A stretch of DNA of 64,000 nt, taken from positions 1-64,000 of the IMG/VR virus record IMGVR_UViG_3300031867_000014, one strand, 5' to 3'. A program made the position numbers and the translations under genes. The notes under the pieces are model-generated. The model had not been told where the DNA came from. It ran no database searches and saw only the letters and a program-made list of their open reading frames with translations. The first letter of the stretch is position 1; each line of letters starts with the position of its first letter. This DNA is from a virus (Duplodnaviria > Heunggongvirae > Uroviricota > Caudoviricetes). Below are positions 17,588-64,000 of this stretch, one piece after another.

Positions 17588-18860
17588 ATTTTTTGATACC
17601 AGTGCTTTATTATCTGGATATAAACTTGACATCGAAGATTGGAATTTTATTAGTAACATTGTATTTGAAGAATTAGAACATATAAAGACATCATAGAACA
17701 AAGATGAAGCAATTAAATATAAAGCACGCTCCCTTGTGCGCTATTTAATGAAACATCGAGAACTATGGACATATAGTTGTGATGCTACACCAAAGCAGAT
17801 TGAAAAACTCCTTTCACGAAGCTCATATTTAGCAGACAACAATGATGGTAAATTAATTTGTGAAGCACGGTTATTGGCGCAATATTACCACTGTGATTCT
17901 GGTTTACCAGAAGATAAAAATCGCGAGCCAATTTTATATTTTATAACATCTGATGCATCTCAATATTTGCTCGCTACTTCATATCCAGAATTACATGCAA
18001 TGTATTATCAAGAGACGGCTCATAAAGAAGAACTCTGGACTGGGTACAAGGACGTCTACTTTGATGATGATATAGAAATGGCTTAGATTTATGAGCACCC
18101 TGAAGAGAATACAATGAAACTTGCTACTAATGAGTATGCAAAAGTATTCTATATGGGAGAACTTGCTGATCTAGTAAAATGGAATGGTGAAACACTCGAA
18201 GCCATTAAATATAAAGATTAGAATAGTGATTATTTCGGCAAGATTCAACCGCGCAATACTGAATAGAAATTATTCTTTGACTTATTACAGAATCGTGATA
18301 TTGAAATTAAATTAGTAAGAGGACAATACGGTTCGGGTAAAACTTTTTTGGCATTGGTACATGCTTTGAATTATATCAAGTGGCATAAATTTGACAAAAT
18401 CGTATATGTGAGAAATAATGTAGAAGTCGCTGGATCTCAAAGATTAGGCGCACTTCCAGGTGAGCAAGAGGATAAGTTAATGCCTTATATGATGCCGATG
18501 GCCGATATCTTGGGCGATGAAGAGGCTTTACGGCAAGAGTTAGAAATGGGTACTATTGAACCTGTGCATTTAGGTTTTATACGTGGGCGTAGCTTCAAAA
18601 ACTCTATTGTGTTTGTAGATGAAGCCGAGAATCTCACAACAGACAATATCAAGTTAATAGTGGGTCGTATAGGTGAGGGAAGTGAGCTCTGGGTACTTGG
18701 AGATGAATCCCAAACTGACTCTGATGTTTTCCGGAAAAATAGCGGCATAGCTTCACTTGTAAATAGCTTGAAAGGGAATCCGCACTTTGGTACGGTGGAA
18801 CTTCAGAAATCAGAAAGAAGTGCTATTGCTCAACTTGCCGCAGAGATCAGGGGTGCATAA
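17559..18860 (+). CDS. phoH: PhoH2-like protein (N-terminal PIN domain plus PhoH P-loop ATPase); 4 in-frame TAG codons (17694, 18084, 18219, 18264)
   Basis: TTG 17559 (RBS AAGGAAGA, 9 nt) runs in frame through ORF 17736..18086 and into ORF 18348..18860. PIN 'IKFFDTSALL' is followed by PhoH 'GQYGSGKTF...VFVDEAENLT...LGDESQTD'. The ORF caller split it into pieces. Confidence 0.7.
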
Positions 18861-27892: not shown

Positions 27893-28255
27893 ATGACAAA
27901 ACAGCAAGAATTTTTGGAATTTTGGAATTATTTAACGCATGAAGTCGCTGGTGATGTTGAAGTGCCAGAAAATGTTCAGGCATATATCAATGCACTAAGT
28001 GATAATGGTGCAGTAGAAAAACCGGCATTTACTGAGAATGGTAGAAATATCCTCGCATATTTGCAGGGACAGCCAGCTCAGATGTATAAGGCAAGAGATA
28101 TTGCAGAAGGTATGGGAATTACATCTAAAGCAGTATCTGGAGCCATGAGAAAACTTGTTTCTGATGGTTATGTAGAAAAGGTTGGTAAAGACCCCGTAGT
28201 ATATACTATCACAGAAAAAGGTAAAAATGTAGAATTTGAAGGAGAAAATGAGTAA
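27893..28255 (+). CDS. winged-helix (MarR-like HTH) protein
   Basis: 'ARDIAEGMGITSKAVSGAMRKLVSDGYVEK' helix-turn-helix motif. Confidence 0.5.
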   Translation: MTKQQEFLEFWNYLTHEVAGDVEVPENVQAYINALSDNGAVEKPAFTENGRNILAYLQGQPAQMYKARDIAEGMGITSKAVSGAMRKLVSDGYVEKVGKDPVVYTITEKGKNVEFEGENE

Positions 28256-29190
28256 TGAAAAAGAATTTTATTAACGAAACGCATATTGAGGGTCTGCTTT
28301 ACGACCATAAGCTTGAGAAGAAAATTACTGGCGCACAGTCCAAGAATCCTGGCACTGAATTCATCGCAGGTACTATCAGTGTTGCAACTGATGATAAGAT
28401 GGAGAATGTTGTCCAGATCCATTATACTTATGTAACTGCAACCACCGCCAAGGGCAATGCGAATGCTTCTTTCGCGGCGCTGGAGAAGATTATCAACGAG
28501 AATCCTACGGTTCTGAATGTTGGAGCTGATAAGGCAATTAAGGTTCGTTGTGATAGCACGATCAACCTGCTTGAGTGGTATCGTGAAGTAACGGATGAAA
28601 AGCCTGTGTCTATTATGCGCAATGAAGGCGGTTTCATTCATATTGTAACCTCTATTAATGAGGATGAAAAGCAGCGCAATACCTTTAAAGCTGATGTGGT
28701 TATCACCAGCGTTAAGGATGTTGAAGCTGATCCCGAAAAGAATATGGATGCATATGTCCGTGTTCGTGGTTGTGTATTCGATTTCCGTAAGGCATTGCTC
28801 CCTGTCGAATTTGTGGTTCGTAGCAAGGGCGGTATGAACTACTTCAGCGGTCTTGAAGCAAGTCCTAAGCATCCGGTATTCACTTGTGTGTGGGGCCGTC
28901 AGCTTAGTCAGACTGTTGTAACCAAGACTGTTACTGAGTCTGCATTTGGTGAGGATGAAGTTCGTGAGCGTCAGACCACGACTCGTGAGTATGTAATTAG
29001 CGGTGCGAGTAAGTCTCCTTACGAGTGGGATGATGAAGAAACGATCACGGCGGCTGAAATGAGCCAGGCCATGAGCGATCGTGAACTTTATCTGGCGTCT
29101 ATGAAGAAGCGTCAGGAAGAGTGGCAGGCGAATAAGGGCAGCGGTAGTGCGTCTGCGGTTTCTTCTGAAACAACTGGTTATAACTTTTAA
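28255..29190 (+). CDS. putative single-stranded-DNA-binding protein with an acidic C-terminal tail ending in F
   Basis: C-terminus '...SSETTGYNF' resembles an SSB tail; sits next to a Sak4-like ATPase; GC-richer. Confidence 0.4.
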   Translation: MKKNFINETHIEGLLYDHKLEKKITGAQSKNPGTEFIAGTISVATDDKMENVVQIHYTYVTATTAKGNANASFAALEKIINENPTVLNVGADKAIKVRCDSTINLLEWYREVTDEKPVSIMRNEGGFIHIVTSINEDEKQRNTFKADVVITSVKDVEADPEKNMDAYVRVRGCVFDFRKALLPVEFVVRSKGGMNYFSGLEASPKHPVFTCVWGRQLSQTVVTKTVTESAFGEDEVRERQTTTREYVISGASKSPYEWDDEETITAAEMSQAMSDRELYLASMKKRQEEWQANKGSGSASAVSSETTGYNF

Positions 29191-41330: not shown

Positions 41331-41377
41331 GCAATTTATCTCAACTACCATATATAGTATACGCCTATAAAGGGGGA

Positions 41378-43642
41378 TTGTATACCTTGATTACAAAACG
41401 TGATGGTCGAAAAGTAGAATTTGATGGCGACAAAATCCGCATCGCTGTGGCTCGCGCATACTGGGATCCAGAATATGCACCAGAAAAGCCATTCCCGCCA
41501 TATGTGGAAGATATTGTTACCTATATTGAAGAAGAGAATGAAGCTTATGATATTTCAGTAGAAGAAATCCAGGATATTGTTGAAGACTTTTTAATGAAAT
41601 ATGATCCAGCTACAGCTCGACGTTATATTCGTTATCGTTATAAGAAAGAAGTTATCCGCGAACAGAAGGATGATTTCTTTATGCGTTTGAAACCAAAAAT
41701 TGAAGCAACAGCAGTTCAGAATCAAAATGCCAATGTTGATGAATATTCATTTGGTGGGCGTAAAGGCGAAACTGATTCTGAGGTTATGAAAGAATATGCG
41801 CTAAAATTCTGTATGAGTGATATGGCGCGTAAGAATCATGAAGAAAACATGATTTATACTCATGATCTTGATGCATATGCTGTTGGTATGCATAATTGTT
41901 TAACTATTCCTTTTGATGACTTACTTGCAAAGGGATTTAATGTGCGACAAACTGATGTGCGGCCTGCGAATAGTGTAAATACCGCAATGCAGCTTGTGGC
42001 AGTTATTTTCCAGTTGCAGTCTTTGCAGCAGTTTGGTGGTGTAAGCGCCAGTCATTTAGACTGGACTATGGTACCATATGTGCGCAAATCTTTTTATAAA
42101 CATTATTGTGATGGATTAAAATATTTAATGGATATGGATGATGCATCTATTAATGATGATATTGATTTTCCATTCGCAAAAGATGTGAGTATTGATGATC
42201 GTAATGCGTATCATCGTGAAAAGCCTTATAAATATGCTTGGGATATGACCCGCAAAGAACTATTCCAAGCTGTTGAAGGAATGTATCATAATCTTAATAC
42301 TTTACAGAGCAGATCTGGTAATCAGCTGCCATTTACTTCAATTAACTATGGAACCTGCACATTAACGGAAGGTCGTTGGGTAATTGAAGCATTATTGCAG
42401 GGATCTATTAAGGGCGTAGGCAAATTACATCGTACACCTATTTTCCCGTGTGGTATTTTCCAGCTGATGAAAGGAGTTAATCGTGAACCAGGAGACCCAA
42501 ACTACGACATGTATCGTCTTGCGCTTGAATCCACAGCACGCAGACTTTATCCAAACTATGCAAACTGTGATTGGTCAGGCAATGCTGGTTTCGATCGACA
42601 AGATCCTTGCACCTATTTTAGTACTATGGGATGCCGGACTGCCAATGGAGCAGACATTAACGCTGAACCTGGAGTCAATCCACAACGTAAAGATGGACGA
42701 GGTAATCTCTGCCCGGTTACCATCATTCTCCCAACAATCGCAATGATGGCCAAGGAGGCCGTGGAGGCTGGCACGCGCGGGGACGATGACGGCAATTCAA
42801 AATCACTCTGGGAAATTTTCATGGCAATTCTTGATAAAAAGATCGTCGAAGCAAAAGATCAGCTTATTGAACGCTATGAATATATGTGTAAACAAGATCC
42901 ACGATCTGCACAGTTTATGTATGAAAATAATACTATGCTAGGTTATCATCCTGAACAAGGTATCCGTTCTGCTCTGCGACATGGAACATTGGTAATTGGT
43001 CAGCTGGGTCTTGCAGAAACTCTTGAGATTCTTGTCGGCACAAACCAGTGCCATCCAGAAGGCATGGAAGCTGCAAAGAAAATTGAGCAACTCTTTAAAG
43101 ATCGTTGCGCACAATTTAAGCAGGATTACAAATTAAACTTCGGCGTCTATTATACTCCTGCAGAAAATCTTTGCTATACTGCCATGAAGAAATTTAAGAA
43201 ACGCTATGGCTCAATTCCTCACGTATCGGATCATGAATACTTTACAAATTCTATTCATGTTCCAGTGTGGGAAAAGGTTGGCGTGCTTGATAAAATTGAT
43301 ATTGAATCACAATTAACTGGTTATAGTAATGCTGGTTGCATTACGTATGTTGAATTAGAGACTGGCATTGTAAATAACTTGGAAGCTATGGAACAAATTG
43401 TAAACTATGCTATGGATCATGATATTCCATATTTTGCAATCAATGTTCCAAATGATACTTGCCTGGAATGCGGCTATACCGGAGAATTTAATGATCGTTG
43501 TCCTCTCTGTCATAGTACCCATATCCAACAGTTACGTCGTGTAACTGGTTATCTTACAGGCAACTATAAGACAGCGTTCAACTGGGGAAAACAAAAAGAA
43601 GCAGAAGAACGTGTAAAGCATACGGGGAGGATGGATACATAA
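41378..43642 (+). CDS. nrdD: anaerobic ribonucleoside-triphosphate reductase
   Basis: C-terminal glycyl-radical 'RVTGYL' and CxxC..CxxC zinc ribbon; ATP-cone-like N-terminus. Confidence 0.85.
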   Translation: MYTLITKRDGRKVEFDGDKIRIAVARAYWDPEYAPEKPFPPYVEDIVTYIEEENEAYDISVEEIQDIVEDFLMKYDPATARRYIRYRYKKEVIREQKDDFFMRLKPKIEATAVQNQNANVDEYSFGGRKGETDSEVMKEYALKFCMSDMARKNHEENMIYTHDLDAYAVGMHNCLTIPFDDLLAKGFNVRQTDVRPANSVNTAMQLVAVIFQLQSLQQFGGVSASHLDWTMVPYVRKSFYKHYCDGLKYLMDMDDASINDDIDFPFAKDVSIDDRNAYHREKPYKYAWDMTRKELFQAVEGMYHNLNTLQSRSGNQLPFTSINYGTCTLTEGRWVIEALLQGSIKGVGKLHRTPIFPCGIFQLMKGVNREPGDPNYDMYRLALESTARRLYPNYANCDWSGNAGFDRQDPCTYFSTMGCRTANGADINAEPGVNPQRKDGRGNLCPVTIILPTIAMMAKEAVEAGTRGDDDGNSKSLWEIFMAILDKKIVEAKDQLIERYEYMCKQDPRSAQFMYENNTMLGYHPEQGIRSALRHGTLVIGQLGLAETLEILVGTNQCHPEGMEAAKKIEQLFKDRCAQFKQDYKLNFGVYYTPAENLCYTAMKKFKKRYGSIPHVSDHEYFTNSIHVPVWEKVGVLDKIDIESQLTGYSNAGCITYVELETGIVNNLEAMEQIVNYAMDHDIPYFAINVPNDTCLECGYTGEFNDRCPLCHSTHIQQLRRVTGYLTGNYKTAFNWGKQKEAEERVKHTGRMDT

Positions 43643-44178
43643 TGCGTTACGCCGGTATTATATATGATGATACCGCTGCGGCACCTGGCTTATGTTTATC
43701 TTTTTATACTCAGGGTTGTCCCATTCATTGTCCTGGATGTCACAACCCTGAGACCTGGGATGAAAATGGTGGACATGAATTCACCAGTCAAACTATTGAT
43801 AATATTATACACGGACTTACAAAAAATAATATTCAACGTAGTTTTGCTATCTTGGGTGGCGAGCCTTTGGCTCCATATAATTTATTTTTAACAGCCATGG
43901 TGGTATCGACAATTCGTGATCATTTGCCGCAAGTGCCTATTTGGATTTGGACAGGTTATACCATGGAAGAAGTTATACAGAATACAAGTTCACCACATTT
44001 AAGAGCGATTCTTTCTAAAGTGAATGTATTAGTAACTGGACCTTTCGTAGAAGCAGAACGTGATATAACTTTAAAATGGCGTGGTTCACGCAATCAAAAA
44101 GTATTCCGATTTGATGACACAAAAAATTTATGGTATAATATAGAAAATGAGGAAGAGGAGTTTAGAATAAATGTCTGA
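43642..44178 (+). CDS. nrdG: anaerobic RNR activating enzyme (radical SAM)
   Basis: 'GCPIHCPGC' cluster; coupled to nrdD. Confidence 0.8.
   Translation: MRYAGIIYDDTAAAPGLCLSFYTQGCPIHCPGCHNPETWDENGGHEFTSQTIDNIIHGLTKNNIQRSFAILGGEPLAPYNLFLTAMVVSTIRDHLPQVPIWIWTGYTMEEVIQNTSSPHLRAILSKVNVLVTGPFVEAERDITLKWRGSRNQKVFRFDDTKNLWYNIENEEEEFRINV
44110..44139 (+). promoter_or_regulatory. early promoter inside the 3' end of nrdG (TTGATG, 18 nt, TGgTATAAT)
   Basis: Family motif followed by 'ATAGAAAATGAGGAAGAGGAG'. Confidence 0.55.
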
Positions 44179-44632
44179 AACACAAGAACCTATTTTTATG
44201 GAACAAGATGAATATTTAGAGTATTTGCGTAATCAGATTAAAGGAAATCCCGAATTAGCATCTACTCCTATTGCTCAGCTAAATATGTATCAAATGAATA
44301 AAGATTTGGTCAAAGGTTTAAAACATATGAACAATATGGCCATTAATAAAGCCCTCGAAAAAGTTGCAGAATGGTTTAAACCTGAAATTTCTCATTATGC
44401 GCTACTTAATCATGAACATCATTATTTTACGATTTTTGAAGCTTCGGATCATATGAGCACTGAGTCATTTATTGCCGCACTTAAAGATATTCTTATGAAT
44501 TATTATGGCGATAATGATATTCGGGCGATTGATGTTCAAGACGATGGTGCAGTAGAAATTTGGGCTATGTGGGATCAAGAGCCTACAGTTGCTTATCTCT
44601 TTCCATATAGTCAAGGAGTTGTATATTATTAA
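44171..44632 (+). CDS. hypothetical protein
   Basis: 153 aa ORF. Confidence 0.5.
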   Translation: MSETQEPIFMEQDEYLEYLRNQIKGNPELASTPIAQLNMYQMNKDLVKGLKHMNNMAINKALEKVAEWFKPEISHYALLNHEHHYFTIFEASDHMSTESFIAALKDILMNYYGDNDIRAIDVQDDGAVEIWAMWDQEPTVAYLFPYSQGVVYY

Positions 44633-44895
44633 TGGATAAAATTGGATATTTAGATTTTAGTGTGGTTAATCCAACTTTGTTCACTTTCGTTGATGACAGC
44701 GGAACTGAGCATAGATATGAGTTTGAAGTACAAGAGCCACAAGATTGTATTAAGACAGTTGCGACATTAATTCAGCAACATGGTCTTACTAAAGTAGTAT
44801 GCAATAAAATTGGTTATGGTCTGTGCGGTAGTATTTCACAGCATCTAAGAACCGTTTATGGTAATACTAATTGTTTCTTTGAATTAAACGATTAA
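44632..44895 (+). CDS. hypothetical protein
   Basis: 87 aa ORF, coupled. Confidence 0.45.
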   Translation: MDKIGYLDFSVVNPTLFTFVDDSGTEHRYEFEVQEPQDCIKTVATLIQQHGLTKVVCNKIGYGLCGSISQHLRTVYGNTNCFFELND

Positions 44896-44906
44896 GGAGA
44901 AAATAT

Positions 44907-45140
44907 ATGGCGCGTTATCTATTGAATGTTGTTGAAACTTATCGAGTCCCTACTGTAAATGAGGCACTTGAAATGCGTGATGAAATGAATAGTGCGGCAG
45001 AATATGAGCTACAGTCTTTTCAGTACACCACGAAATTTAATAAGAAAACTGAAGAAGAATATCAGATTGTAAAGGTTAAGAAAGTTATCAATACTGAGAA
45101 AGATCCAGTTTCTGGAGTGCAGGTGCATTATGAGTATTAA
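44907..45140 (+). CDS. hypothetical protein
   Basis: 77 aa ORF with RBS AAGGAGAA. Confidence 0.45.
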   Translation: MARYLLNVVETYRVPTVNEALEMRDEMNSAAEYELQSFQYTTKFNKKTEEEYQIVKVKKVINTEKDPVSGVQVHYEY

Positions 45141-45732
45141 GGCTGGATTTGAAAAGATTAGTAAATATGCTGATGATCCGGGAGTAATTATTCCATATAG
45201 AAAGACTAAAAATTCTGCGGGTTATGATTTCTATGTGGCCGAAGATACAGTAATTCCCGCTTATGAAAGTTATATTCTTAAAGATTTCGAGAATGAACTC
45301 GCGGGGGATCTTACTGAATATTATCATAGTTTTGAAGAGTTTTTAAAGACTACTCCATATGATTTAGGAACGGTGGCATTATTTACCAAGAAGTATAAAA
45401 AGAAAACTACATTGGTTCCAACAGGTGTAAAGGCTTATATGCCGGAAGGTTACTACCTACAGTTGAGTATGCGATCAAGTCTTCCTCATAAGCACTGGAT
45501 TATGATCGCTAATGCACCTGGAATTATTGATGCAGATTATTATAATAATCCTGATAACGAAGGCCATATTTACTTCCAGCTCGTAAACTTCCTACCGTTT
45601 GATGTAGAATTACGCAAAGGCGATTGTATCGGTCAAGGCATTTTCTTACCTTATGGCGTAATTGAAAATGATAGCGCGGAAGGCGATCGTGAAGGCGGGT
45701 TTGGCTCTACCGATGAAAATCCTAGCACTTGA
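45130..45732 (+). CDS. dUTPase/dCTP-deaminase family protein
   Basis: 'NSAGYD' and 'GIIDADY' dUTPase-fold motifs. Confidence 0.7.
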   Translation: MSIKAGFEKISKYADDPGVIIPYRKTKNSAGYDFYVAEDTVIPAYESYILKDFENELAGDLTEYYHSFEEFLKTTPYDLGTVALFTKKYKKKTTLVPTGVKAYMPEGYYLQLSMRSSLPHKHWIMIANAPGIIDADYYNNPDNEGHIYFQLVNFLPFDVELRKGDCIGQGIFLPYGVIENDSAEGDREGGFGSTDENPST

Positions 45733-46198
45733 TTAGGCCACCTAGACCACTGGGTGGTCTACTTGGATTGATGGAGCCTTGACCGATTTCGGCAAATTTA
45801 CATATGATGATGCCGATATACATAAGCGCATACATAAAGTATGCACTTAGATTGAAATACTTTTACTTCAATAGAAACCAGATAAATTGGTTCTTGAAGA
45901 TATACAAATGCAAATTAATAATGTAGCGACATTTTAGAAGCTAGCCTGGCTTCAAGGTGCTATTATTGAGACTTGCTGGAAACTCGGATTGCCTGTGGAA
46001 CTGAGCCGCCCCTCTGAATGGCGTGCGGCATGTAATCTCTTGAAAGGTCAAGATAAGCACCGAGACAACCAAAAGAAAGTTGCTCAAGAGTGGGTCATGA
46101 AGAAGTTTGGGAAGAAATGCACACAAGATGAAGCAGATGCAATTTGCATTGGTTACGCGGCAAGTCTTGCCGAAGATAATGAAATGAATTGGGAGTGA
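45713..46198 (+). CDS. ruvC: RuvC-family Holliday junction resolvase; 5 in-frame TAG codons (45734, 45743, 45848, 45872, 45935)
   Basis: ATG 45713 overlaps the dUTPase-family gene end. The translation 'MKILALDQATQTTGWS...LVLEDIQ...DEADAICIG' has the RuvC N-terminal, central and C-terminal acidic motifs, with Q at each TAG. The ORF caller found only the C-terminal 69 aa. Confidence 0.75.
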
Positions 46199-46203
46199 GT
46201 ATT

Positions 46204-46617
46204 GTGGAGTGGGCAACTATTATTAGTGAAATCTTTACAGTAGTCTTGATCCCTCTTCTTGGTATTGTAACTAAATATTTTATTCAGTTTATCAATATCA
46301 AAGCCGCAGAACTTAAGCAGAAGAAAGAAGATGCACTTTATCAAAAGTATATCGACATGCTTAATACTACAATTGTAAATGCGGTAACCACTACTACACA
46401 GACGTATGTGAATTCTTTGAAGTCACAAGGTAAGTTTGATGCTGAAGCACAAGCAGAAGCTTTTAATAAGACTTATCAGTCCGTTATTTCGGTATTGGGC
46501 GAAGAGGCTCAGACATATCTCAGCAGCGCGATTGGCGATTTAAATGAGTATATCCGTACTGCTATTGAACGTCAAGTGCTCGTTGATAAGTTAATTCCGT
46601 CAACTACAAATGGGTAA
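46204..46617 (+). CDS. holin-like membrane protein (N-terminal TM segment, charged C-terminus)
   Basis: GTG 46204 with RBS GGGAG; start uncertain (ORF 46189..46617). Confidence 0.45.
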   Translation: MEWATIISEIFTVVLIPLLGIVTKYFIQFINIKAAELKQKKEDALYQKYIDMLNTTIVNAVTTTTQTYVNSLKSQGKFDAEAQAEAFNKTYQSVISVLGEEAQTYLSSAIGDLNEYIRTAIERQVLVDKLIPSTTNG

Positions 46618-46662
46618 AAAAAAATTTGGGGCGACTCATTAAGAGTCGCCCCATTTTTTTTA
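46618..46662. terminator. bidirectional intrinsic terminator between convergent transcription units
   Basis: A-run, then ggggcgactc-atta-agagtcgcccc, then a T-run. Confidence 0.75.
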
Positions 46663-47232
46663 TTTCTCTTCAGAATGATCATGTAAAGGAAGTGCACGAA
46701 TACGCTCATCCCAAACATCCATGTGGCCATTGCCACCAAGATTATGATAAAGAGTTAAACGTTCATTATATTGCATTAATTCAATCGGAGTTATATAACC
46801 ACGCTCTATATAAACTTTACATGCCGCAATAAGATTTTGTAAATGTAAATCGAGAACACCACGTTGTAACAAACGTGCGTCTTTTTTACTGTCTTTCATT
46901 TCATCTCGGATTTCTTTAACTGATAACTAAAGATCTTTTACAGTAAGTAAGATTTCATTATCAATCTTAGTGCTGGCTGCTTCTGCTTGCTCAAATTTTT
47001 TATCAATTGCTTCATTCATGGTTTTGATTTGACAAGCACATTTTTCAGCCATAACATCTGATTCACGTGCCATGTCATCCCACTCCTTTTGCTTACGAGT
47101 TTTTGCTCCTAATTGTTGATCTCTTTTTTTAGGATCAATTACTCGTTTTACAATCCAACCAATGAGGCCAGCGGCTAATACCGGAATGCCCCACTTTACT
47201 AAGGTTTCTAAGACCAAAGCCCAAGTCACCAT
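46660..47232 (-). CDS. membrane protein (N-terminal TM; candidate spanin or holin-associated); 1 in-frame TAG (46927)
   Basis: ORFs 46927..47232 and 46660..46899 are in frame across a TAG. Confidence 0.55.
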
Positions 47233-47532: not shown

Positions 47533-49221
47533 TCAAGAGGCTACTTTCGCTTTTGCTAAGAGCGACGCTAAGACTTTTGCTTGCGCTTCGCTGTCGCATT
47601 CGATTCTGACATAATATTTATTGTTGTTCTCTGAGCCATCTACTTTTACCAAATATGTATTTTTCATATAGCCGGACTTTCCGTTCCAGGTGATAGCTGA
47701 CCATTCGCCTTCAACAGCGGTTACATCTACGATCTGTCCGAATTTTACTGTCGTAACAATGCTAGTAGAAGTACTAGGACCGCTACGCATATTCACAGTA
47801 GAGCCAGAAGTTCCGGTTACTTTAGCTTGATAAGCCACCTTAATCACCTCAGGTTCATTCTCCTGATCTCCTTCTTGTGGATCAGGTTCTGTTGATGGAG
47901 TCTCTACTCCAGATTTTTCATATAGTAATTTTTCTGTCGCGGTATCTACAATACCATTTGCAGTAAGACCATTTTTAGTTTGGAAACTAATTAAAGCTTT
48001 TTCAGTTTCGGCGCCGAAATCACTATCAGCTCCATATTTAGGCAAGGTCTCACCAACTTTTAACAACATTTCTTGTAATAATTTAACACTCGCACCGTAG
48101 GCTCCACGTTTTAAATTAGAAATGGTAATCACAATATTAGCACCATTATCATATAAACCCGCTGGAATACCCCAATGGGTCCAACGTCCATATGCTTTAA
48201 TAGTGCTTTTTACCACACCAATTTTACTGCCTGCGGCATGAATAAATGTTTGACCATCACCTAAATATAAACCAGTATGGCCCATTTTTCCAGTTGATGC
48301 ATCTTTGCGATAAAGGCAGCACACTTTATCTGCTGGCAATGTATCAATTGTACCTTTGACTTCAAATTTCGTTTTGTTCCATTGAGAAGTTGCACCAGAA
48401 ACCATTTGAATACCAACCTATTTCATAGCTTGTTGGACAAATCCTTGACAGTCAAATACTTGTTTGCCAATCCATTTACTAACAATAGATGGGTCCACAT
48501 GATCTGGATATTGATTATGTTTAGAATTAATTAAGGCTTGCGTACACGTTTGACCTGCTGTGCCCCAAATATAACCACATTGTGGATCTAATTTCGAGTA
48601 GGCCCAGTCCACAACTACCTGAGCTTTTGTTTTTTCAGCCACAGGAACCACTTCCTTTTCGGTGCCGTAATTGCTACGGACTTCTGTGCCGGGGTAATAA
48701 AACGCCAAGATTTCTTTATAATTAAAACCTTGTTTTGCCATTTCTTTCGCGCCAGTCTAGGACATGCCGACCCCATGTCCATTTTTTGTCTTGGTATCAT
48801 AAGGGTCATCTTTTGAAATAAGATAACCTCTTACACCGCCCCATACTTCTTGTGAAGAACGAATACGTCCACCATTTGATGCGCTATACACGCAAGTTCC
48901 GCACAAACCGTTATTGTAATATAAGACTTCCCCTTTTGTCTCTTCTACAGCTTGCATTGCATTAGGATATGAAGAGGAAATTCTAGACGCACGGAACGCT
49001 TGATCAATAGAACTTTTATCTGTAATATACCCTTTTCCTTTTGATCTTGATAATGCGAATGTACGAGCTGCTACTGCTTGTGCTTTGCATGCCTCAAGAA
49101 GAGAATTACCAATTTCACTTGGTACTACACCCTTACAATATTCTTCCATATCTAAAAGGACTTCTTCAGCACCATACTTGGTTAAATTCTCTTCTCGAGA
49201 TAATTTTACCTTAATCTGCAT
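47533..49221 (-). CDS. multidomain cell-wall hydrolase: SpoIID/LytB domain, NlpC/P60 peptidase, PG-binding domain and SH3; 2 in-frame TAG codons (48757, 48418)
   Basis: Three ORFs are in frame across TAGs. The first TAG sits exactly where the SpoIID family has Gln ('GHGVGMS-Q-TGAKEMA'). The NlpC/P60 Cys motif 'FDCQGFV' and His motif 'HTGLYLGDGQTFIHAAG' span the second TAG. Ends with TGA. Confidence 0.85.
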
Positions 49222-56479: not shown

Positions 56480-59400
56480 TTAAGATGTAAATAATACTGT
56501 AGTAGCGATAGAATCATTCGCAACTTTTGGAACCGCACCAAAATGTGTTTCTTTCCAAGTCTTAAATGAACTATCAAGAGCATAAAATGCTTCTGCACTC
56601 TGTTCTAAATTAGCAGCTGTACTATTTTGTATAGTAATGATAACATTTTTTAACTTCGCCTAATTCAAACAATTTTCATTGAAATTATAAGCTCCAGCCT
56701 TTAAGCGTACTGCGTCTAATGTCCAATAAATTGTATCATTAAATGTAACGCCATAAAATGCTCCAGCTTCCATACCCATAATATTTGCACTAATTGAAGT
56801 TAAAACAACAGAGGTGTTACCAAAAACGTTTGCTTTTAATTGAGTAACATTATTTGGAACAAAAGCTAAACGTAAATTAGAACAATTGTAGAAAGCACTA
56901 GAACCTAATGTCTGTAAGTTTTGACCGCTACGAGTATATGCGGCTTCATCCTCAAACATTGATAATTGTGAACAACCATTAAATGCACTATTACCAATCT
57001 CAGTAATATATGGGAATAGGTAAGAAGCAGCCCAGCATAAATTTGTACATTGAGCGAATGCATTAGCACCAATATTGGCGAGATAAGTAATATTGACTTC
57101 TGCCGCATTATCATGTTGAGCATCATATAATGCTACTGTTGTTAAACCAACACAGTTTTCAAAACATGAACGTCCAATATATCTTATGGCTTGTGGGAAA
57201 CGTGCAACATCTAATGTTGTGCAATTCTTAAATGTATAAGCACCAAGAGTAACCATTGCTGCTGGTAAAGCAGTACCAACTTTTAAGCTATTACAATACA
57301 TAAAAGCGCCTTCTGCGGTAGAATTGTTTTCACCAATCATTTTTAAATTTGGACAACCAGCAAAATCTACATAATCCAAATTATAACCAGCAAAAGCAAA
57401 GGAATGAATATATTGTAAAGTATTACCAGCTTCAAAATAAATGCGGCGTAATGGCGCATCCGTAGCAGAAGCTAATGCTTCTTCTAAAGCGGGCTTAGCA
57501 CTTGCTGTAGTACCGGGATCAGCTAATTTTTTCACATAATAATTCGCTGCTCGTTTAGTATTATTTAAACCAACAACAGTCTAACCATTATATGTTTTTG
57601 GTATAGTAACCGCGGTATATGGATAATTATCCTTCAAAGTTAACATTACACCAGTAATTGTGCTAGAATCTGCAGTTACTTGTTGTGTTACTGACGATGA
57701 AGTAAACCAGCTTTCAGCTGTCGCAACATCTTGCATATTCTATGGATTACTAAATTGTGGATAAATTTTAACAGTATAACTATTATTTTCACTACCATGA
57801 GTTACTTGTTTCCATTCATTACCCCAATTAATTGTGGTATATACTGTCGTATGTGTTCTATCATTTTCATCACAAACGATTTTTACAATACCCAAATTTA
57901 AAGTGGCAGGATCAGTAGCAGATTCACGATAACGTACCGATTGTACATTAGCTACACCAGCTGTTAATGGATCGTCGGAATTATAGAATTTAACTGTATA
58001 ACGAGTAATTTCTGCAACATATACTGGATAAAAATTAACTTCACGATGCTTATTATCAGGAGTCAATGCAAAATCATCAGCAAAAGTATAAGTAGTACCA
58101 TTATATACATATAAGTTGTCTGTCTTAATGTATTCATTTAATTCTGCTTGCTTTTCTTCTTCAGTCACAGCATTAGCACTTGGCGTCCAAATATTATTTT
58201 CATTTAATAAATCAATAATTTCATCACTCTTATAATAAGTTATTTCACTATTATAAGTTGTTGGATTATTTTCATTAATCGTTGTCCAAGAGACATCTAC
58301 ATAAATACTAGAAGCTGCACGCGCTGCTGCATGTGCTTGCGCTAAAGCCGCTTCTGGATTTTGAGATTGATTAGTTGCTGCTTCAATAAACAAGTCAGTG
58401 TCTTCATCATCAGAAGTCTTAAAACCAACCAAACGATAAGTATATTGTACTTCTTTCGGCTTACCAAATTCACGGACATCTAAATGTGCACATAATTGCT
58501 GCGCAGATAATGTTGGCACAACATCAAAAGTATACTATTTAGTAAAATTAGTAATTGCAGTTTTATTAGTATTAAAGAATGAAACAGTATAAGAAGATGT
58601 TACTAAATCATTAGTATCATAAGCGATCTCTAAATTTGGATAACAACCACTATATTTTTCTTTAATTGCAACTGCATTAAGGCCATAATTCATACCGTTA
58701 TTAATTTTAATGGTACCACCAACATAATAACGTGTTGCAACTTTTGAGTTAGAAGTCGTAGACCATGGAGCAGAACCTTCAAGACCAGCTGTAGTAATTA
58801 ATTGATTTAAAATTGGGAAATCAACAATCATTGTGCCACTGGCATCAAGAGTACATTCAGTTGGATCTGTTGGATCTAATTTCCAATTCAAATCTGTTAA
58901 TTGAATATGCGCGACTGCATTGGTTTTATTCTTTGCAGCCTTAAATAAAGATTTTGTATCTAATTTTGGACAACCAGAAATATCTAAGTAGTCCAAACTT
59001 TCCCAACCATCATTATCACATTGTACTGTGGTTAATAATGGCTAATCATGTAATGCTAAAGTAGTTAATGTATTAGGTACATAAACTGTCTCTAAAATAC
59101 CGCCAACCGGGAATGATACAGTATTCAAATATGTATTTTTTGCAGAGAAGATTCTTAAATAGGTATTTGAAGATACATCTGCTGCCGTTAAAGACATATA
59201 TTGATTATCTAAGTTGGCCACTTGTAACAATGGATATAAACCACCATCAAAACGAGTCCATGGATTCTTTTCATTATTACCATTCAAACCGCGATTATTG
59301 CGTTGAGCTTGCTGATAAGCATTAAGAGATACATCAAATTCACGCAATTTAAATTGAGTATTAACACCACTATTATTAGTAACGTTAATATTAGCCATAC

Positions 59401-62400
59401 CCAAATAACCCAAATTACCTAAATGAGTAATATTTTGTACGAATAGCATTATAGCTTCTTGTTCATCAGTTGGCATATTATCAAAGCGTACAGCATTTGT
59501 CTCGCCTTCTGGAATATAAATTGGACCACGTGGGCTGCCTTGCGTTAAAGAGTTAGCACTAAAGTTGATCCAAACATAACTTGAGTCATCAGCAGTTAAA
59601 TTCAAAGTATACTATTTACGTTCAGTCTCAGTATAGTCTGAACTAGCTGGTAATGGATTTACACGGAAGCTATATTTAAATGCGGAACCATCTGCAGCAT
59701 ATTTACCATCCAAAAGCAACAAGCGACGTTTAAGCCATTGTTTACGATGCTCAGAACGAGTACCTTGTGCCGCATATAACAAATCAGAATAGTTAGTGTC
59801 ACGCACTTGCCAATACTGAGAATGATCGGGTTGTTGATACTCAGAATTATCCTGCTCATTTGCGACACTATCAATTAAGACGTGTTGACCACTTGAATTG
59901 TATAACCAGTTAGGTTCATCTTTCGGACGAATATACTTATACCATTCATCTTGGTTAATTAATGTTTCTACCCAAGCATTAGCTAATTTATTATTATAAG
60001 TATTAAGTAAGAAATTCAAATTCAAATTACCTTTACGCATCTGACGATACATAACAGCAACAGGACTTGAATAACCATTTGCAAAACACAATCTAAAGTT
60101 AGCCCATAAAACGCTATATTCACCAGAACCGTTAGGATCAATATTACCCTATGCATCACGTGGATAATCTGCAGTTGTATTATAAATACCGAAATTAGTA
60201 TCACGTACATCATAACGATATACTAATTTACCAGTATTATTAACACCCATTGCCGTGTCCATATCGTAGAAAATAGGATACCAAATACCAGTACCAGTTT
60301 CATTATCAGCATCATATGAGACCATCATCATATTTTTCGCACGACTGTCCATTAATACTTCTAATTCTGTCATAATATAATAGAAAGTAACAAAATCACG
60401 ATCCATATGTCTATCAAATTCATTTTTAAATTTTGCTAAACGATATTCGGCAGAATCGGTCGTATAAGTTACACCATCTAAAGTAACTTCTGGAATTGGA
60501 TTATTGGTCGCTGTTTTCATATTGGTAGACGCTAACCAATTTAAAAATGCACTAAATGCACGTTTATCTGTCATCTACTGATTATCATAATCAGGATAAC
60601 GTGATTCATAACCCGCGATCCAAATTGGGTATGGATCTGTCATGCCAATCTATTGATTATTTTCATCATAAGTTGGTTTTGGATCTTTATCAGCATTATC
60701 ATCCCATGGAGTTCTAAATGATGTCAAATCATTATTATTGTTTTTCATTTCCCAGCATTGAATGGAATTACGCTTTTCTTTATAAAGATATAATGGAGCA
60801 GTCTTTAAATAATTTGCATAATTCTTTGCAGCAGTTTCTTCACTATTCGGTGTCCATGGCACCATTTGATAAATACCATCTTGTAATACATACTTATAGT
60901 AAGTTTGTTCAGGATCATAAGGTAAATCTTTAGGCGAATCAACAATCGCTTCATACCCTGGTACAAAATCATTACCGTTCTTTACAAAACCAAAACCAGT
61001 AGCTTCATCAGAGAAGAAACCGAATAAATCAGCTTGGCTCTTATCTAAGTTAAAATTATAACGACCAATATATTCATATTTATCAAATGAATCTTCGCCA
61101 GTAAAACCGTTTGCATCTGTAGGATCAATACCAACCGGATAATAAAAGATAACACATGGACGACCTTTAATGGCAGTCAATAATGTTGTATTAGCATATT
61201 GATGACTAGTATTTTTTAAAGCTGCTTTTGGAGTTAATTCAATATTAGCAGAAGCATATAAATCATTGAGCTAATTAGCAGTACCAGTATTATGTGACAT
61301 AGAGCTATCCATATAATCAGCTTTCAATGTAAATATTTTACAAGCCGGAATATCAGAAAATAATTTATATTTCTTTTTTACAGTATTAAGACGTAAGTTT
61401 TTAACCGGATATTCTAATGAAGATGTGCCCTGTGGATAAATTGTACAATGCCATCTATCAGCAGATGTAGCTGTAAAACCAATAATTTTACCTTGAGAAT
61501 TTTTCTAAATAGACTCCATATTAATACCAAAGCAACGATCTTCATCATTAGGATCAACGAAATATGCTTCTACATAACGGTAGTCTTTTTTATCAAAATA
61601 TGGTAAACTAACTTCTGCATTATCGGCACTTTGTGTCATCTTAGTACCTTTTTTATCAGTACGATAACCACCACGTAATACCAAATAAGGAATTGATGCA
61701 CTTTCAATAACTTTTTGTAAAGATACATAAGAATATTTACCTGCGGCATTATATTCAGTAACGTTATTTGCTGCTTTACGAGCCATGGCAGCGTCTGCAT
61801 CGCCCAAACCAGCTAAATAGTTATCTAATACGGCTTCTGCACTTAAAGCTTTACCATAGAAACGGAAATTATATAATTCAATATCTGCATATGTAGAATC
61901 GAAAATAGTAGCAGTTAAAATACCTTCACCAGAGTCTTGACGCAAACGCATATTAGAATCACGCGCAACAATGCCTGAAAGTACACCATTAACATATACA
62001 TAAATATAATTGCGTGGTGTACGTGTATCAATATCAGCATCATTACGAGCGATAACATAACAAATATGTACGCGTTCATCTGCACTATAATAAGCCACTA
62101 AACCATTAACATTATCACCAACTACGCCTTTAGTCTGCATATCAGTTAATACTTTAGTGCTAGTATCAGTTAATGCAAAATAGTCACCAGTAGCAATAAT
62201 ACCTACAACAGGTTCATCTGATTCCCAGTTTTCACGTTGTGTATTATAACTGGCACAATTAATAATACGCTGTTTACGATCACGAATATTAGAAATTTTT
62301 ACATCAAATTCAATAGTCTTACCAGTCGTAATAGCGCCTGTATAAGATGCAGTGTTACTATTAAAAGCGCCATAGAAAGGTGCGACAGGGAAGGTCAATT

Positions 62401-64000
62401 TTGCACCATTGTTCAATACTAATTTATTTTTATTAGCATTAACCGCAAACCAACCATTAGTAGTCCAGTTAAAATTCTTAAATTGAGCTTCCACAATAGT
62501 ATTACCAATAGCTTGCGCGCCACCCGCCGCAGTTTCTTGCCCATCTGGATTAAACCAAGTTGTAGACCAATTCTCCTTATTAGGAGAAGTTTCATTCTTA
62601 TCTGGTGTAAAATCGAATTGAGCATCAGCAGTAACAATAGGCATAACACCAGAACTACCTGAAATTGTATATTCTTGTGGACTAGTAACTGTTTGTTTGT
62701 TAGCACCACTACCAACTGTTAAGACTAATTGGTATACACCTTCATTTTCAAATGCTACATCCCACGTTAAATTCTAACCAATAGTAAAATTCTGTAAGAT
62801 ATCACGATCAATCACAAAAATACCATTATCATTTTTCTTGTACATCAAAAGATGTCCTTCTAATGAAGTCACTTGCGCAGAAGGATAAGAAACACGATAA
62901 ACAACTTTTACATTGGACGCATAGGCGGCATATGATGATTCAGAAGGCCAAGATAATACATTAATACGAGGCACTGGATTCGATGGATCAACGAACATAA
63001 CACTTTGTGATAATGTAGCGCTTGTAATAGTTGTATTACCGATAGTGCCGCTTACTTGAGTAATTACTGTAACAGGACGACCTGCCTGATATGTTAAAGT
63101 AATATGTGAAGCAGTACCATTAGTGATATTTAAAATTTCACCAGTCTGATAAGAAGTACCATACTGTTGGTCAATTACTGAATAAATAATTTTTGGATTA
63201 CGAATTAATGCAGAGTCATAACGAGGTACAACACCATATGATGCATCACCATCAAAGTCTTGAAGTGACTCGGTTTCTGGAGTTACATACAAAGATGCTA
63301 AAGCTAAAGATAAAGTTTGTGATGCACTTCTATTATTACCATCAGTAAAGATTACTGCTAAACTATATTGATGGTTTTCAGAAAAGGTATGTCTATCTAA
63401 CTGTTCATGAATATAATTTTTAATATCGTAATCAACAATGGTATTTCTAGTTGCACTTGGTTGAATATTTTCCATTGTAAATAATTTTGTATTACTGCTG
63501 CGATCATAAACCTCAATATCAATTTGATTGGTTAAACCTTCAATTTCAGATTCTGAATAAGCAACATAACGCAAAATCATTGAATCAGCGGTAGTAGAAT
63601 ATGCAACAGAACGACTAACAAGAGTCGCTGCAAATGTACTGGCTACACCACCACCACCAGTACCGCCACCACCAGAGCCATTACCCGCAACGGTCATGCG
63701 GCGAGTTGTCACTAATTGTAATGTTTCATCTACGCGGTCTACACGGAAAAATGAACCATTAGTTTCATCAAAAATGACATCATCGGTTTTTGGTAAATTA
63801 ATAACAACGGGTTCATCTGGATCGGTTAAATCTAATACGCCTTCGATTTCGTTAAAGTAGAAATTAAAATCAGTTTCAACTTCAGCGAATTCTTTTGAGC
63901 TGTAAAAGAATCCACTAGATCCACCAAATGCTAAACGATCATGTAAGGTATGTGATTCAGAATCAGTAAAATCACAATCTAAATAAATCTTTTTAGTATC
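56480..64000 (-). CDS. giant (>2500 aa) virion adhesin/tail protein with C-terminal BspA-type leucine-rich repeats; at least 12 in-frame TAG codons; the 5' end lies beyond the window
   Basis: Eleven consecutive ORF-track pieces (62774..63712 down to 56660..57535) are all in one frame across TAGs, with open gaps (extra TAGs at 57581, 60575 and ~61270). The frame is still open beyond 63712 to the window edge. It ends with TAA at 56480. LRR_5-like repeats 'AFxxCxxLxxI' and a Gly-rich 'GNGSGGGGTGGGG' segment are present. Confidence 0.7.

Follow-up and report, generated by a model that had tools for sequence, protein, structure and literature searches.

The locus described here raises the question of whether an apparently intergenic region behind the dUTPase gene of a tailed phage encodes a complete protein, and how such a protein could be made across five in-frame stop codons. 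The region belongs to IMG/VR virus record IMGVR_UViG_3300031867_000014 (Caudoviricetes), of which positions 1 to 64,000 were analyzed; this whole 64,000-nucleotide stretch, part of a source contig of 73 kb, is referred to below as the window. A sequence-only reading had proposed that amber codons (TAG), standing for glutamine, hide a gene for a RuvC-like Holliday-junction resolvase at positions 45713-46198 of the + strand.

Translation with TAG as Gln yielded, from the ATG at 45713, a frame of 161 codons closed by a TGA (46196-46198). It contained exactly five internal stops, all of them TAG and none TAA or TGA, at codon 8 (45734-45736), codon 11 (45743-45745), codon 46 (45848-45850), codon 54 (45872-45874), and codon 75 (45935-45937). 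The first of these directly follows the codon for the catalytic Asp7 (LALD-Q-AT), and the last lies in the context ATF-Q-KLA. Under the standard code, just a 69-amino-acid (aa) fragment starting with TTG (45989-46198) and a 40-aa piece were listed, which confirmed that a complete RuvC frame is concealed by amber codons. The motifs LALDxAT..TGWS, LVLEDIQ, and DEADAICIG, quoted in the sequence-only reading, were each present in the translated product.

The same 486 nt with all five TAGs were found, identical, in four independent ENA assemblies, and the codons are therefore not an assembly or sequencing artefact. Two short ENA contigs annotated with standard-code calls carried an empty gap of approximately 625 nt at RuvC and an endolysin split into pieces. 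Two long ENA contigs, called with TAG as sense, already listed a 161-aa product with a weak RuvC Pfam match; the gene is thus already found by code-15 gene callers. Stop-free antisense open reading frames (ORFs) of 313-535 codons were observed on the - strand opposite Pfam-supported genes at 3659-5266, 9547-10488, and 28168-29190. Since such long spurious frames occur in the window, ORF length alone is weak evidence of coding, and the case for RuvC as a coding sequence rests on homology and on codon-level comparison with relatives.

The Gln-decoded product matched Pfam RuvC (PF02075) over residues 32-146 with 26.7 bits, against a gathering score of 22.2, while no match to PF07066 was obtained in the Pfam scan; of the two families suggested for verification, only the first was therefore recovered. 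PHROG families 159, 827, and 1770, all Holliday-junction resolvases, matched the protein from residue 1 to about residue 153, and 281 homologues were found. The scores against the NCBIfam RuvC equivalogs (NF000711/TIGR00228) remained far below the cut-off (26.5 versus 163 bits and 17.4 versus 100.65 bits); on these scores the protein is not orthologous to cellular RuvC but a divergent RuvC-like phage enzyme.

All four catalytic carboxylates could be assigned. In published enzymes these are D7, E66, D138, and D141 of E. coli RuvC and D8, E71, D145, and D149 of bIL67 RuvC (PMC3864405). Using a homologue profile over the LALD and LEDIQ segments, Asp7 (GAT, 45731-45733) and Glu62 (GAA, 45896-45898) were placed on D7 and E66 of E. 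coli RuvC 1HJR. The third and fourth carboxylates, in Asp139-Glu-Ala-Asp142 (46127-46138), were placed on the DxxD of P. aeruginosa RuvC 6LW3 by a single-sequence match. All four residues were invariant across 47 homologues.

Structure was modelled with AlphaFold on P0002, an 83%-identical homologue of the window protein, and the model reached a mean predicted local distance difference test score (pLDDT) of 89.8. In a Foldseek comparison with the PDB, the 14 best matches were all RuvC proteins, bacterial and from phage bIL67 (4ktw), with template modelling (TM) scores of 0.67-0.81. The fold (TM 0.72-0.81), the catalytic carboxylates, and the length of about 160 aa are shared with bIL67 RuvC (4KTW; PMC3864405) and bacterial RuvC (1HJR, 6LW3, 4LD0). 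In contrast, identity to these enzymes was only 16-23%, the score lay below the equivalog cut-off, an invariant C-terminal motif, CTQDEADAICIG, set the family apart, and in-frame amber codons occur in none of the characterized enzymes. Positions 45713-46198 encode a complete, conserved RuvC-family resolvase with an RNase H-like fold and a D-E-D-D metal-binding tetrad, and full translation of its mRNA requires UAG to be read as an amino acid.

These data leave scarcely any room for the view that the gene is a decaying pseudogene killed by nonsense mutations, of which at most fragments such as the 69-aa C-terminal ORF are translated. The five stops and the two short ORFs under the standard code are what such decay would produce. 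However, every stop was TAG, and neither TAA, TGA, nor a frameshift was found here or in more than 60 related orthologues, whose frames were all intact. This also bore out the expectation of a read-through rather than a frameshift architecture. The catalytic residues were invariant, the TAGs stood at Gln columns, the sequence was identical in four assemblies, and the same genome carries TAGs in its endolysin, its PhoH-like gene, and an ORF of more than 2506 aa. The pseudogene reading is effectively refuted.

The next question concerned the amino acid inserted at UAG. In a large protein database, TAG on recoded contigs is already rendered as Gln, which makes protein alignments circular; the case for Gln was therefore built on codon-level comparison of DNA, using an alignment of 62 non-identical RuvC orthologues (relatives are denoted by locus numbers such as L110). 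Near-invariant Gln columns 65, 67, 81, 125, and 138 contained TAG in 5-13 genomes each. Over all TAG columns, 34% of the cells aligned to TAG were Gln, compared to a background of 5%.

The window codons behaved similarly. In the 83%-identical relative L110, the pairs (window/L110) were TAG/TAG at codon 8, TAG/CAG at 11, TAG/TAG at 46, CAA/TAG at 53, TAG/CAA at 75, and CAA/TAG at 113. The column of codon 8 held TAG in 13 genomes, CAA or CAG in 13, and Ala in 36 distant ones; that of codon 75 held TAG in 22, CAA in 10, and Arg or Lys in the others. At codon 46, TAG was common to L110, L111, L007, and L008, and L002 had a Gln codon. Codon 54 belonged to a variable column, with CAT in L110 and Trp, Tyr, or His in distant relatives. 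Among close syntenic relatives, TAG alternated with CAA or CAG at columns 8, 11, 46, and 75, and the two TAGs of the window endolysin aligned with Gln in 12/12 and 9/15 homologues. These codon comparisons establish glutamine as the predicted amino acid at UAG in this phage.

A different amino acid, e.g., Glu, Trp, or Tyr, is very improbable. It draws some support from codons 46 and 54, which align with Trp or Tyr in distant relatives, and from the distant relatives L035 and L059, which seem to use TAG for Glu. Against it stand the exchange with CAA/CAG at four of the window columns within the close syntenic group and the Gln-aligned endolysin codons; moreover, not a single window TAG fell in a conserved Glu or Trp column.

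The two distant relatives deserve description in their own right. In L035 (IMGVR_UViG_3300031994_000011, RuvC at about 7763-8501) and L059 (IMGVR_UViG_3300021399_000108, RuvC at about 7715-8510), cells aligned to TAG over the whole loci were Glu in 33-35% and Asp in 11%, with Gln outside the top six. Conserved columns at TAG positions numbered 10 Glu, 1 Asp, and 0 Gln in L035, and 4 Glu and 0 Gln in L059; the same analysis of three control loci gave Gln at 6/6, 6/8, and 7/7 conserved TAG positions. One of the L035/L059 TAGs occupied the invariant catalytic Glu of RuvC (Glu in 69/69 homologues). Judged by these alignments, both genomes appear to be candidates for a TAG-to-Glu reassignment in phages, of which no report was found in a limited literature search. 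A further relative, L030 (IMGVR_UViG_3300028048_000052, RuvC at about 7983-8483), carried a single in-frame TGA at an invariant Trp (60/60 homologues). TGA-to-Trp recoding was considered and rejected, as the flanking genes, including long late-type ORFs, follow the standard code; an isolated nonsense change or a sequencing error is more likely.

A decoder of UAG was sought next. No tRNA(CUA), and indeed no tRNA of any kind, was found in the window, although ARAGORN does detect CUA tRNAs, as checked on phage phAss-1. Rfam at gathering thresholds returned no family in the window, and neither a release factor nor an aminoacyl-tRNA synthetase was present among the 30 window proteins scanned against Pfam. 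In relatives, about 70 loci had no tRNA within 8-10 kb of RuvC, and the flanks extending past the left end of the window held no suppressor tRNA; for the giant protein at the right end, no relatives were found. A pattern built from the phAss-1 tRNA-Sup did locate tRNA(CUA) in tRNA clusters on the contigs of L020 and L029, both of which have a TAG-bearing RuvC. It is therefore plausible that this phage, too, may encode a suppressor beyond the window.

The tRNA(CUA) genes seen in relatives L158 (1519-1611) and L139 (7777-7866), and in L071 (1659-1749), one of the two of phAss-1, were about 90 nt long. This length implies a long extra arm or an insertion and is unusual for a Gln-type tRNA. The three shared the anticodon stem-loop GGTCTCTAAAACC.

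The distribution of TAG in RuvC was then compared with that in neighbouring genes across 19 syntenic relatives (RuvC identity 47-84%). The order NrdD, NrdG, three small ORFs, dUTPase, RuvC, and holin-like gene, with a converging lysis module downstream, was kept in these relatives. RuvC had 3-9 TAGs in all 19, at shifting Gln positions, and PolIII-alpha, Gmk, NrdD, NrdG, the three small ORFs, and dUTPase had practically none. When pooled, RuvC contained 104 TAG, 115 CAA, and 31 CAG codons (TAG share 41.6%), and the eight upstream genes contained 18, 873, and 490, respectively (1.3%). For the holin-like gene the counts were 5, 72, and 56 (3.8%), and for the lysis-module genes, ORF190 and endolysin, 54, 177, and 25 (21%).

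The TAG share of RuvC exceeded that of the lysis-module genes in 10 of the 13 loci having both. RuvC was preferentially recoded in the sense of Borges et al. (bioRxiv 10.1101/2021.08.26.457843), with a pooled Fisher p = 8e-7; this and other p-values across the syntenic loci are indicative only, the loci being phylogenetically non-independent. Within the gene, the TAG share fell from 54% in the 5' half to 29% in the 3' half. The first TAG occurred within codon 15 in 13/19 relatives, codon 8 was TAG in 12/19, and at least one TAG preceded the C-terminal catalytic pair in 19/19. Taken together, the alignments delineate a conserved island of predicted read-through TAG codons in RuvC.

Within the window, recoding extended to many other genes. 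In-frame TAGs numbered four in the PhoH-like ATPase gene (17529-18860, +), two in the SpoIID/NlpC-P60/SH3 endolysin gene (47533-49221, -), one or two in each of several tail-fibre-like genes, 12 in the ORF of more than 2506 aa (56480-64000, -), and four and three in two genes at 810-3326 (810-2138 and 2613-3326, respectively). In contrast, the + strand block at 18955-45732 showed one TAG versus 285 CAA/CAG. Its products include gyrase B and A, ligase, RNase H, DnaB, RecJ, an SF1 helicase, and Pol III alpha, as well as guanylate kinase, NrdD, NrdG, and dUTPase. The phage recodes TAG in many genes, and the replication and nucleotide-metabolism genes upstream on the same strand are without in-frame TAG.

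All 54 ORFs of at least 90 aa ended in TAA (36) or TGA (18), which follows from the method, as ORFs were called with TAG as sense. The short ORF 2293-2598 would, under the standard code, end at a TAG three codons ahead of a TGA. The PhoH-like gene formed a second TAG island among + strand genes otherwise free of TAG, and PhoH is among the variably recoded ORFs of phAss-1 (PMC10607447). Several auxiliary genes on the + strand, within 5334-7267, 10509-11006, and 11875-12813, had no in-frame TAG; they comprise a nucleoside 2-deoxyribosyltransferase, a xanthine/uracil-family permease, a NADAR domain protein, and an SPFH/Band 7 protein.

RuvC had been described as having the highest TAG density of any gene in the window. 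For ORFs of 90 aa or longer this was correct per length, owing to the high Gln content of RuvC, whose 486 nt hold 5 TAGs; the other ORFs reached no more than 3 in 714 nt. Counted against all Gln-type codons, however, the 38% (5/13) of RuvC was similar to the 36% of 810-2138 and below the 50% of 2613-3326. The counts of CAA, CAG, and TAG were 7, 0, and 4 in 810-2138, 3, 0, and 3 in 2613-3326, and 8, 0, and 5 in RuvC; genes without in-frame TAG used CAG freely, and those with the top TAG shares had none. In relatives, CAG accounted for 12% of the Gln-type codons of RuvC, compared to 35% for the upstream genes. These codon counts suggest that TAG may have arisen mainly by C-to-T change from CAG.

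These numbers bear on the main rival explanation, passive tolerance, according to which RuvC is a late, low-level gene whose CAG and CAA codons drifted synonymously to TAG without any regulatory role. Such drift explains much of the pattern, and as a full account it is possible, though we hold it to be distinctly on the unlikely side. It is favoured by the 36% and 50% TAG shares of other window genes, by the fast turnover of TAG positions between close relatives, by the depletion of CAG wherever TAG occurs, as would result from simple C-to-T drift, and by the phAss-1 RuvC, which lacks in-frame TAG. It is less compatible with a TAG share in RuvC twice that of the lysis-module genes over 19 genomes, with the skew of TAGs to the 5' half, and with the retention of at least three TAGs in every syntenic orthologue. 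In addition, RuvC is embedded in an otherwise TAG-free operon, and its TAGs are the sole visible feature that separates its expression from that of the overlapping dUTPase gene.

The preceding gene (45130-45732, +) had been taken for a dUTPase, and this identification held (Pfam dUTPase 7.9e-16; PHROG 135). It has no TAG in the window and at most one in any relative. The RuvC start does lie inside it, but the overlap measures 20 nt (45713-45732) and not the 19 nt reported earlier. The dUTPase TGA spans RuvC codons 6-7, overlapping the Asp7 codon, and the first RuvC TAG follows 2 nt later. The RuvC start codon falls within the sequence coding for the conserved C-terminal motif of the dUTPase, and a Shine-Dalgarno sequence of its own is not clear.

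Downstream, a gene for a holin-like single-transmembrane protein without in-frame TAG extends to 46617 on the + strand, starting at GTG 46204 or TTG 46189. It matched PHROG 13712 ('holin') with 7e-27, and Pfam Holin_LLH below threshold only. Its Shine-Dalgarno GGGAG (46191-46195) lies within the last RuvC codons, and its start is 4-8 nt past the RuvC stop. This junction was conserved in L110, L111, L002-L019, and L023, and GGGAG was absent in L020, L021, and L024.

A bidirectional intrinsic terminator at 46627-46653, with an 11-bp stem, 8 GC pairs, and T-runs on both strands, closes the converging + and - strand units. From the upstream genes through RuvC to the holin-like gene, no terminator-like site was found. 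Only one gene follows RuvC in the + strand replication and nucleotide-metabolism unit, which converges on the - strand lysis and tail module, in accordance with the early-late boundary suggested for this position. The arrangement of dUTPase, RuvC, and holin-like gene suggests an operon.

The geometry at this junction admits the possibility that the TAGs of RuvC chiefly gate the downstream holin-like gene, which we consider improbable. A stop at codon 8 would leave about 460 nt untranslated, coupling would be lost or polarity would set in, and the holin would be made only after the code switch. The close spacing of the two genes and the GGGAG within the last RuvC codons are kept in close relatives (L020, L021, and L024 excepted), the holin-like gene is nearly TAG-free in 19 genomes despite its lysis type, and it has been suggested that strongly recoded genes can reinforce a translation block in the transcript that carries them (Borges et al., bioRxiv 10.1101/2021.08.26.457843). 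However, minimum free energy folds of 20 junction sequences revealed no consistent hairpin that would sequester the Shine-Dalgarno sequence or start, and the strong, well-spaced Shine-Dalgarno would permit independent initiation. The holin label itself rests on one PHROG family, with Pfam Holin_LLH below threshold, and a second transmembrane protein, one with in-frame TAGs, adjoins the endolysin.

This second protein, of 190 aa, is encoded at 46660-47232 on the - strand, carries an N-terminal transmembrane segment, a coiled-coil region, and one TAG, and its gene runs toward the terminator that also closes the holin-like gene. Among relatives, the TAG count rises to as many as 4 (L004; pooled with the endolysin). 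This 190-aa protein could be the actual holin or could regulate lysis; the + strand 'holin' would then be something else.

The explanation we prefer, and regard as likely, is that RuvC is a debranching nuclease able to nick forks, and that its gene is transcribed together with early genes but left untranslated until amber suppression begins. Phage RuvC is known to nick replication forks and to fragment chromosomal and plasmid DNA when expressed, and it has been proposed to debranch DNA for packaging (PMC3864405). Recoded stops have been proposed to block late-gene translation until the phage alters decoding in the cell, and a preferentially recoded nuclease, an intron homing endonuclease, has been described inside an early gene (Borges et al., bioRxiv 10.1101/2021.08.26.457843).

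Owing to the 20-nt overlap with dUTPase and the lack of a separating terminator, RuvC is probably co-transcribed with early or middle genes; it is possibly also translationally coupled with dUTPase. Before a UAG-decoding tRNA is active, ribosomes would halt at codon 8 and then at codons 11, 46, 54, and 75. The truncated products would be devoid of Glu62 or of the C-terminal Asp139/Asp142, so that no active nuclease would be made. Once amber suppression is established, presumably through a phage tRNA(CUA) encoded outside the window, as in relatives, full-length RuvC would appear and could clear Holliday junctions and other branches from replicated concatemers ahead of packaging, a role also ascribed to bIL67 RuvC, T4 endonuclease VII, and T7 endonuclease I. 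Multiple TAGs, biased toward the 5' half, would in this way act as a post-transcriptional timer and as a safety catch on a fork-nicking enzyme. The earlier notion of a late resolvase gated by suppression has thereby gained comparative support from the conserved TAG island, while going beyond what sequence alone can demonstrate.

Several observations weigh against this explanation. We infer the timing of transcription, the coupling with dUTPase, and the kinetics of suppression, as well as the biological role. The adjacent holin-like gene, which would be expected to be gated by the same logic, has no in-frame TAG, and neither tRNA(CUA), a release factor, nor an aminoacyl-tRNA synthetase was located within the 64-kb window, nor tRNA(CUA) within 8-10 kb of RuvC in relatives. 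The TAG excess of RuvC over the lysis-module genes is only about twofold, in 10 of 13 phylogenetically non-independent loci, and two other window genes have a similar TAG share of Gln codons. Furthermore, the RuvC homologue of phAss-1 lacks in-frame TAG though that phage recodes TAG. A stronger form, in which the TAG island is a selected timing device holding back the nuclease and, by coupling or polarity, also the holin-like gene 5 nt downstream, is doubtful; if true, one recoded gene would let the code switch set the timing of DNA debranching as well as of lysis.

Comparison with known systems placed the locus among code-15 phages (Borges et al., bioRxiv 10.1101/2021.08.26.457843; Peters et al., PMC9523058). 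Common to both are TAGs in tail, lysis, and late-type genes, replication genes compatible with the standard code, alignment of TAG with Gln, tRNA(CUA) in related genomes, and a few gene families that are far more recoded than others. In contrast, the family with the heaviest recoding here is that of a RuvC resolvase encoded at the 3' end of the replication operon; the words 'resolvase' and 'RuvC' are absent from the text of Borges et al. (bioRxiv 10.1101/2021.08.26.457843). The window holin-like gene is TAG-free, whereas lysis genes are preferred targets in crAss-like and Agate phages.

The local order of NrdD, NrdG, small ORFs, and RuvC homologue is shared with the Phassvirus/phAss-1 group ('Caudoviricetes code 15 clade', PMC10607447). 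Members of this group come from gut samples, have genomes of about 130-140 kb, recode TAG in many ORFs, and are predicted to infect Clostridia; Enterococcus phage EF1-like phages are possible members of the phAss-1 family (PMC10607447). The best isolate matches of the window RuvC were to these EF1-like phages, at 37% identity. Identity to the RuvC homologue of phAss-1 (L071, OQ749652.1, 6001-6510) was just 31%, and that homologue differs from the window gene in lacking in-frame TAG; its annotation reads 'hypothetical protein'. A small coding sequence upstream of it is labelled thymidylate synthase ThyX, though it is just 91 aa long.

A second difference from phAss-1 concerns the region upstream of NrdD, where phAss-1 carries two tRNA-Sup(CTA) and the window a 264-nt gap without tRNA. 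This gap (41331-41593), between guanylate kinase and the NrdD ATG, kept its length in L002 (1611-1875) and L072 (6201-6465) and gave no Rfam match.

A megablast search with positions 44000-47000 found no match among deposited phages. Distant RuvC homologues occurred on contigs binned with metagenome-assembled genomes of Clostridia, Oscillospiraceae, and Bacilli. A Bacillota host would fit the endolysin domains and the Shine-Dalgarno usage.

With respect to function, T4 endonuclease VII (gp49) and T7 endonuclease I (gp3) have a comparable proposed role in late debranching before packaging (cited in PMC3864405). Their folds are unrelated to RuvC, however, and the timing in T4 and T7 is mainly transcriptional, whereas recoded codons are the only visible device here.

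The amber-recoded RuvC is a clean instance of a known recoding phenomenon and not a new kind of system, and it leaves the established picture of phage recoding unchanged. In practical terms, when this phage group is annotated with the standard code, an essential-looking DNA-processing enzyme disappears into a gap of about 625 nt and the endolysin is split; these contigs therefore need code-15-aware gene calling. The locus also offers a natural contrast, in which a nuclease that endangers replication overlaps a TAG-free gene and differs from its neighbours just in 3-9 amber codons. For this reason it is a good test case for a mid-infection change of code as a translational timer, an idea that would be extended here from lysis and structural genes to a DNA-processing enzyme.

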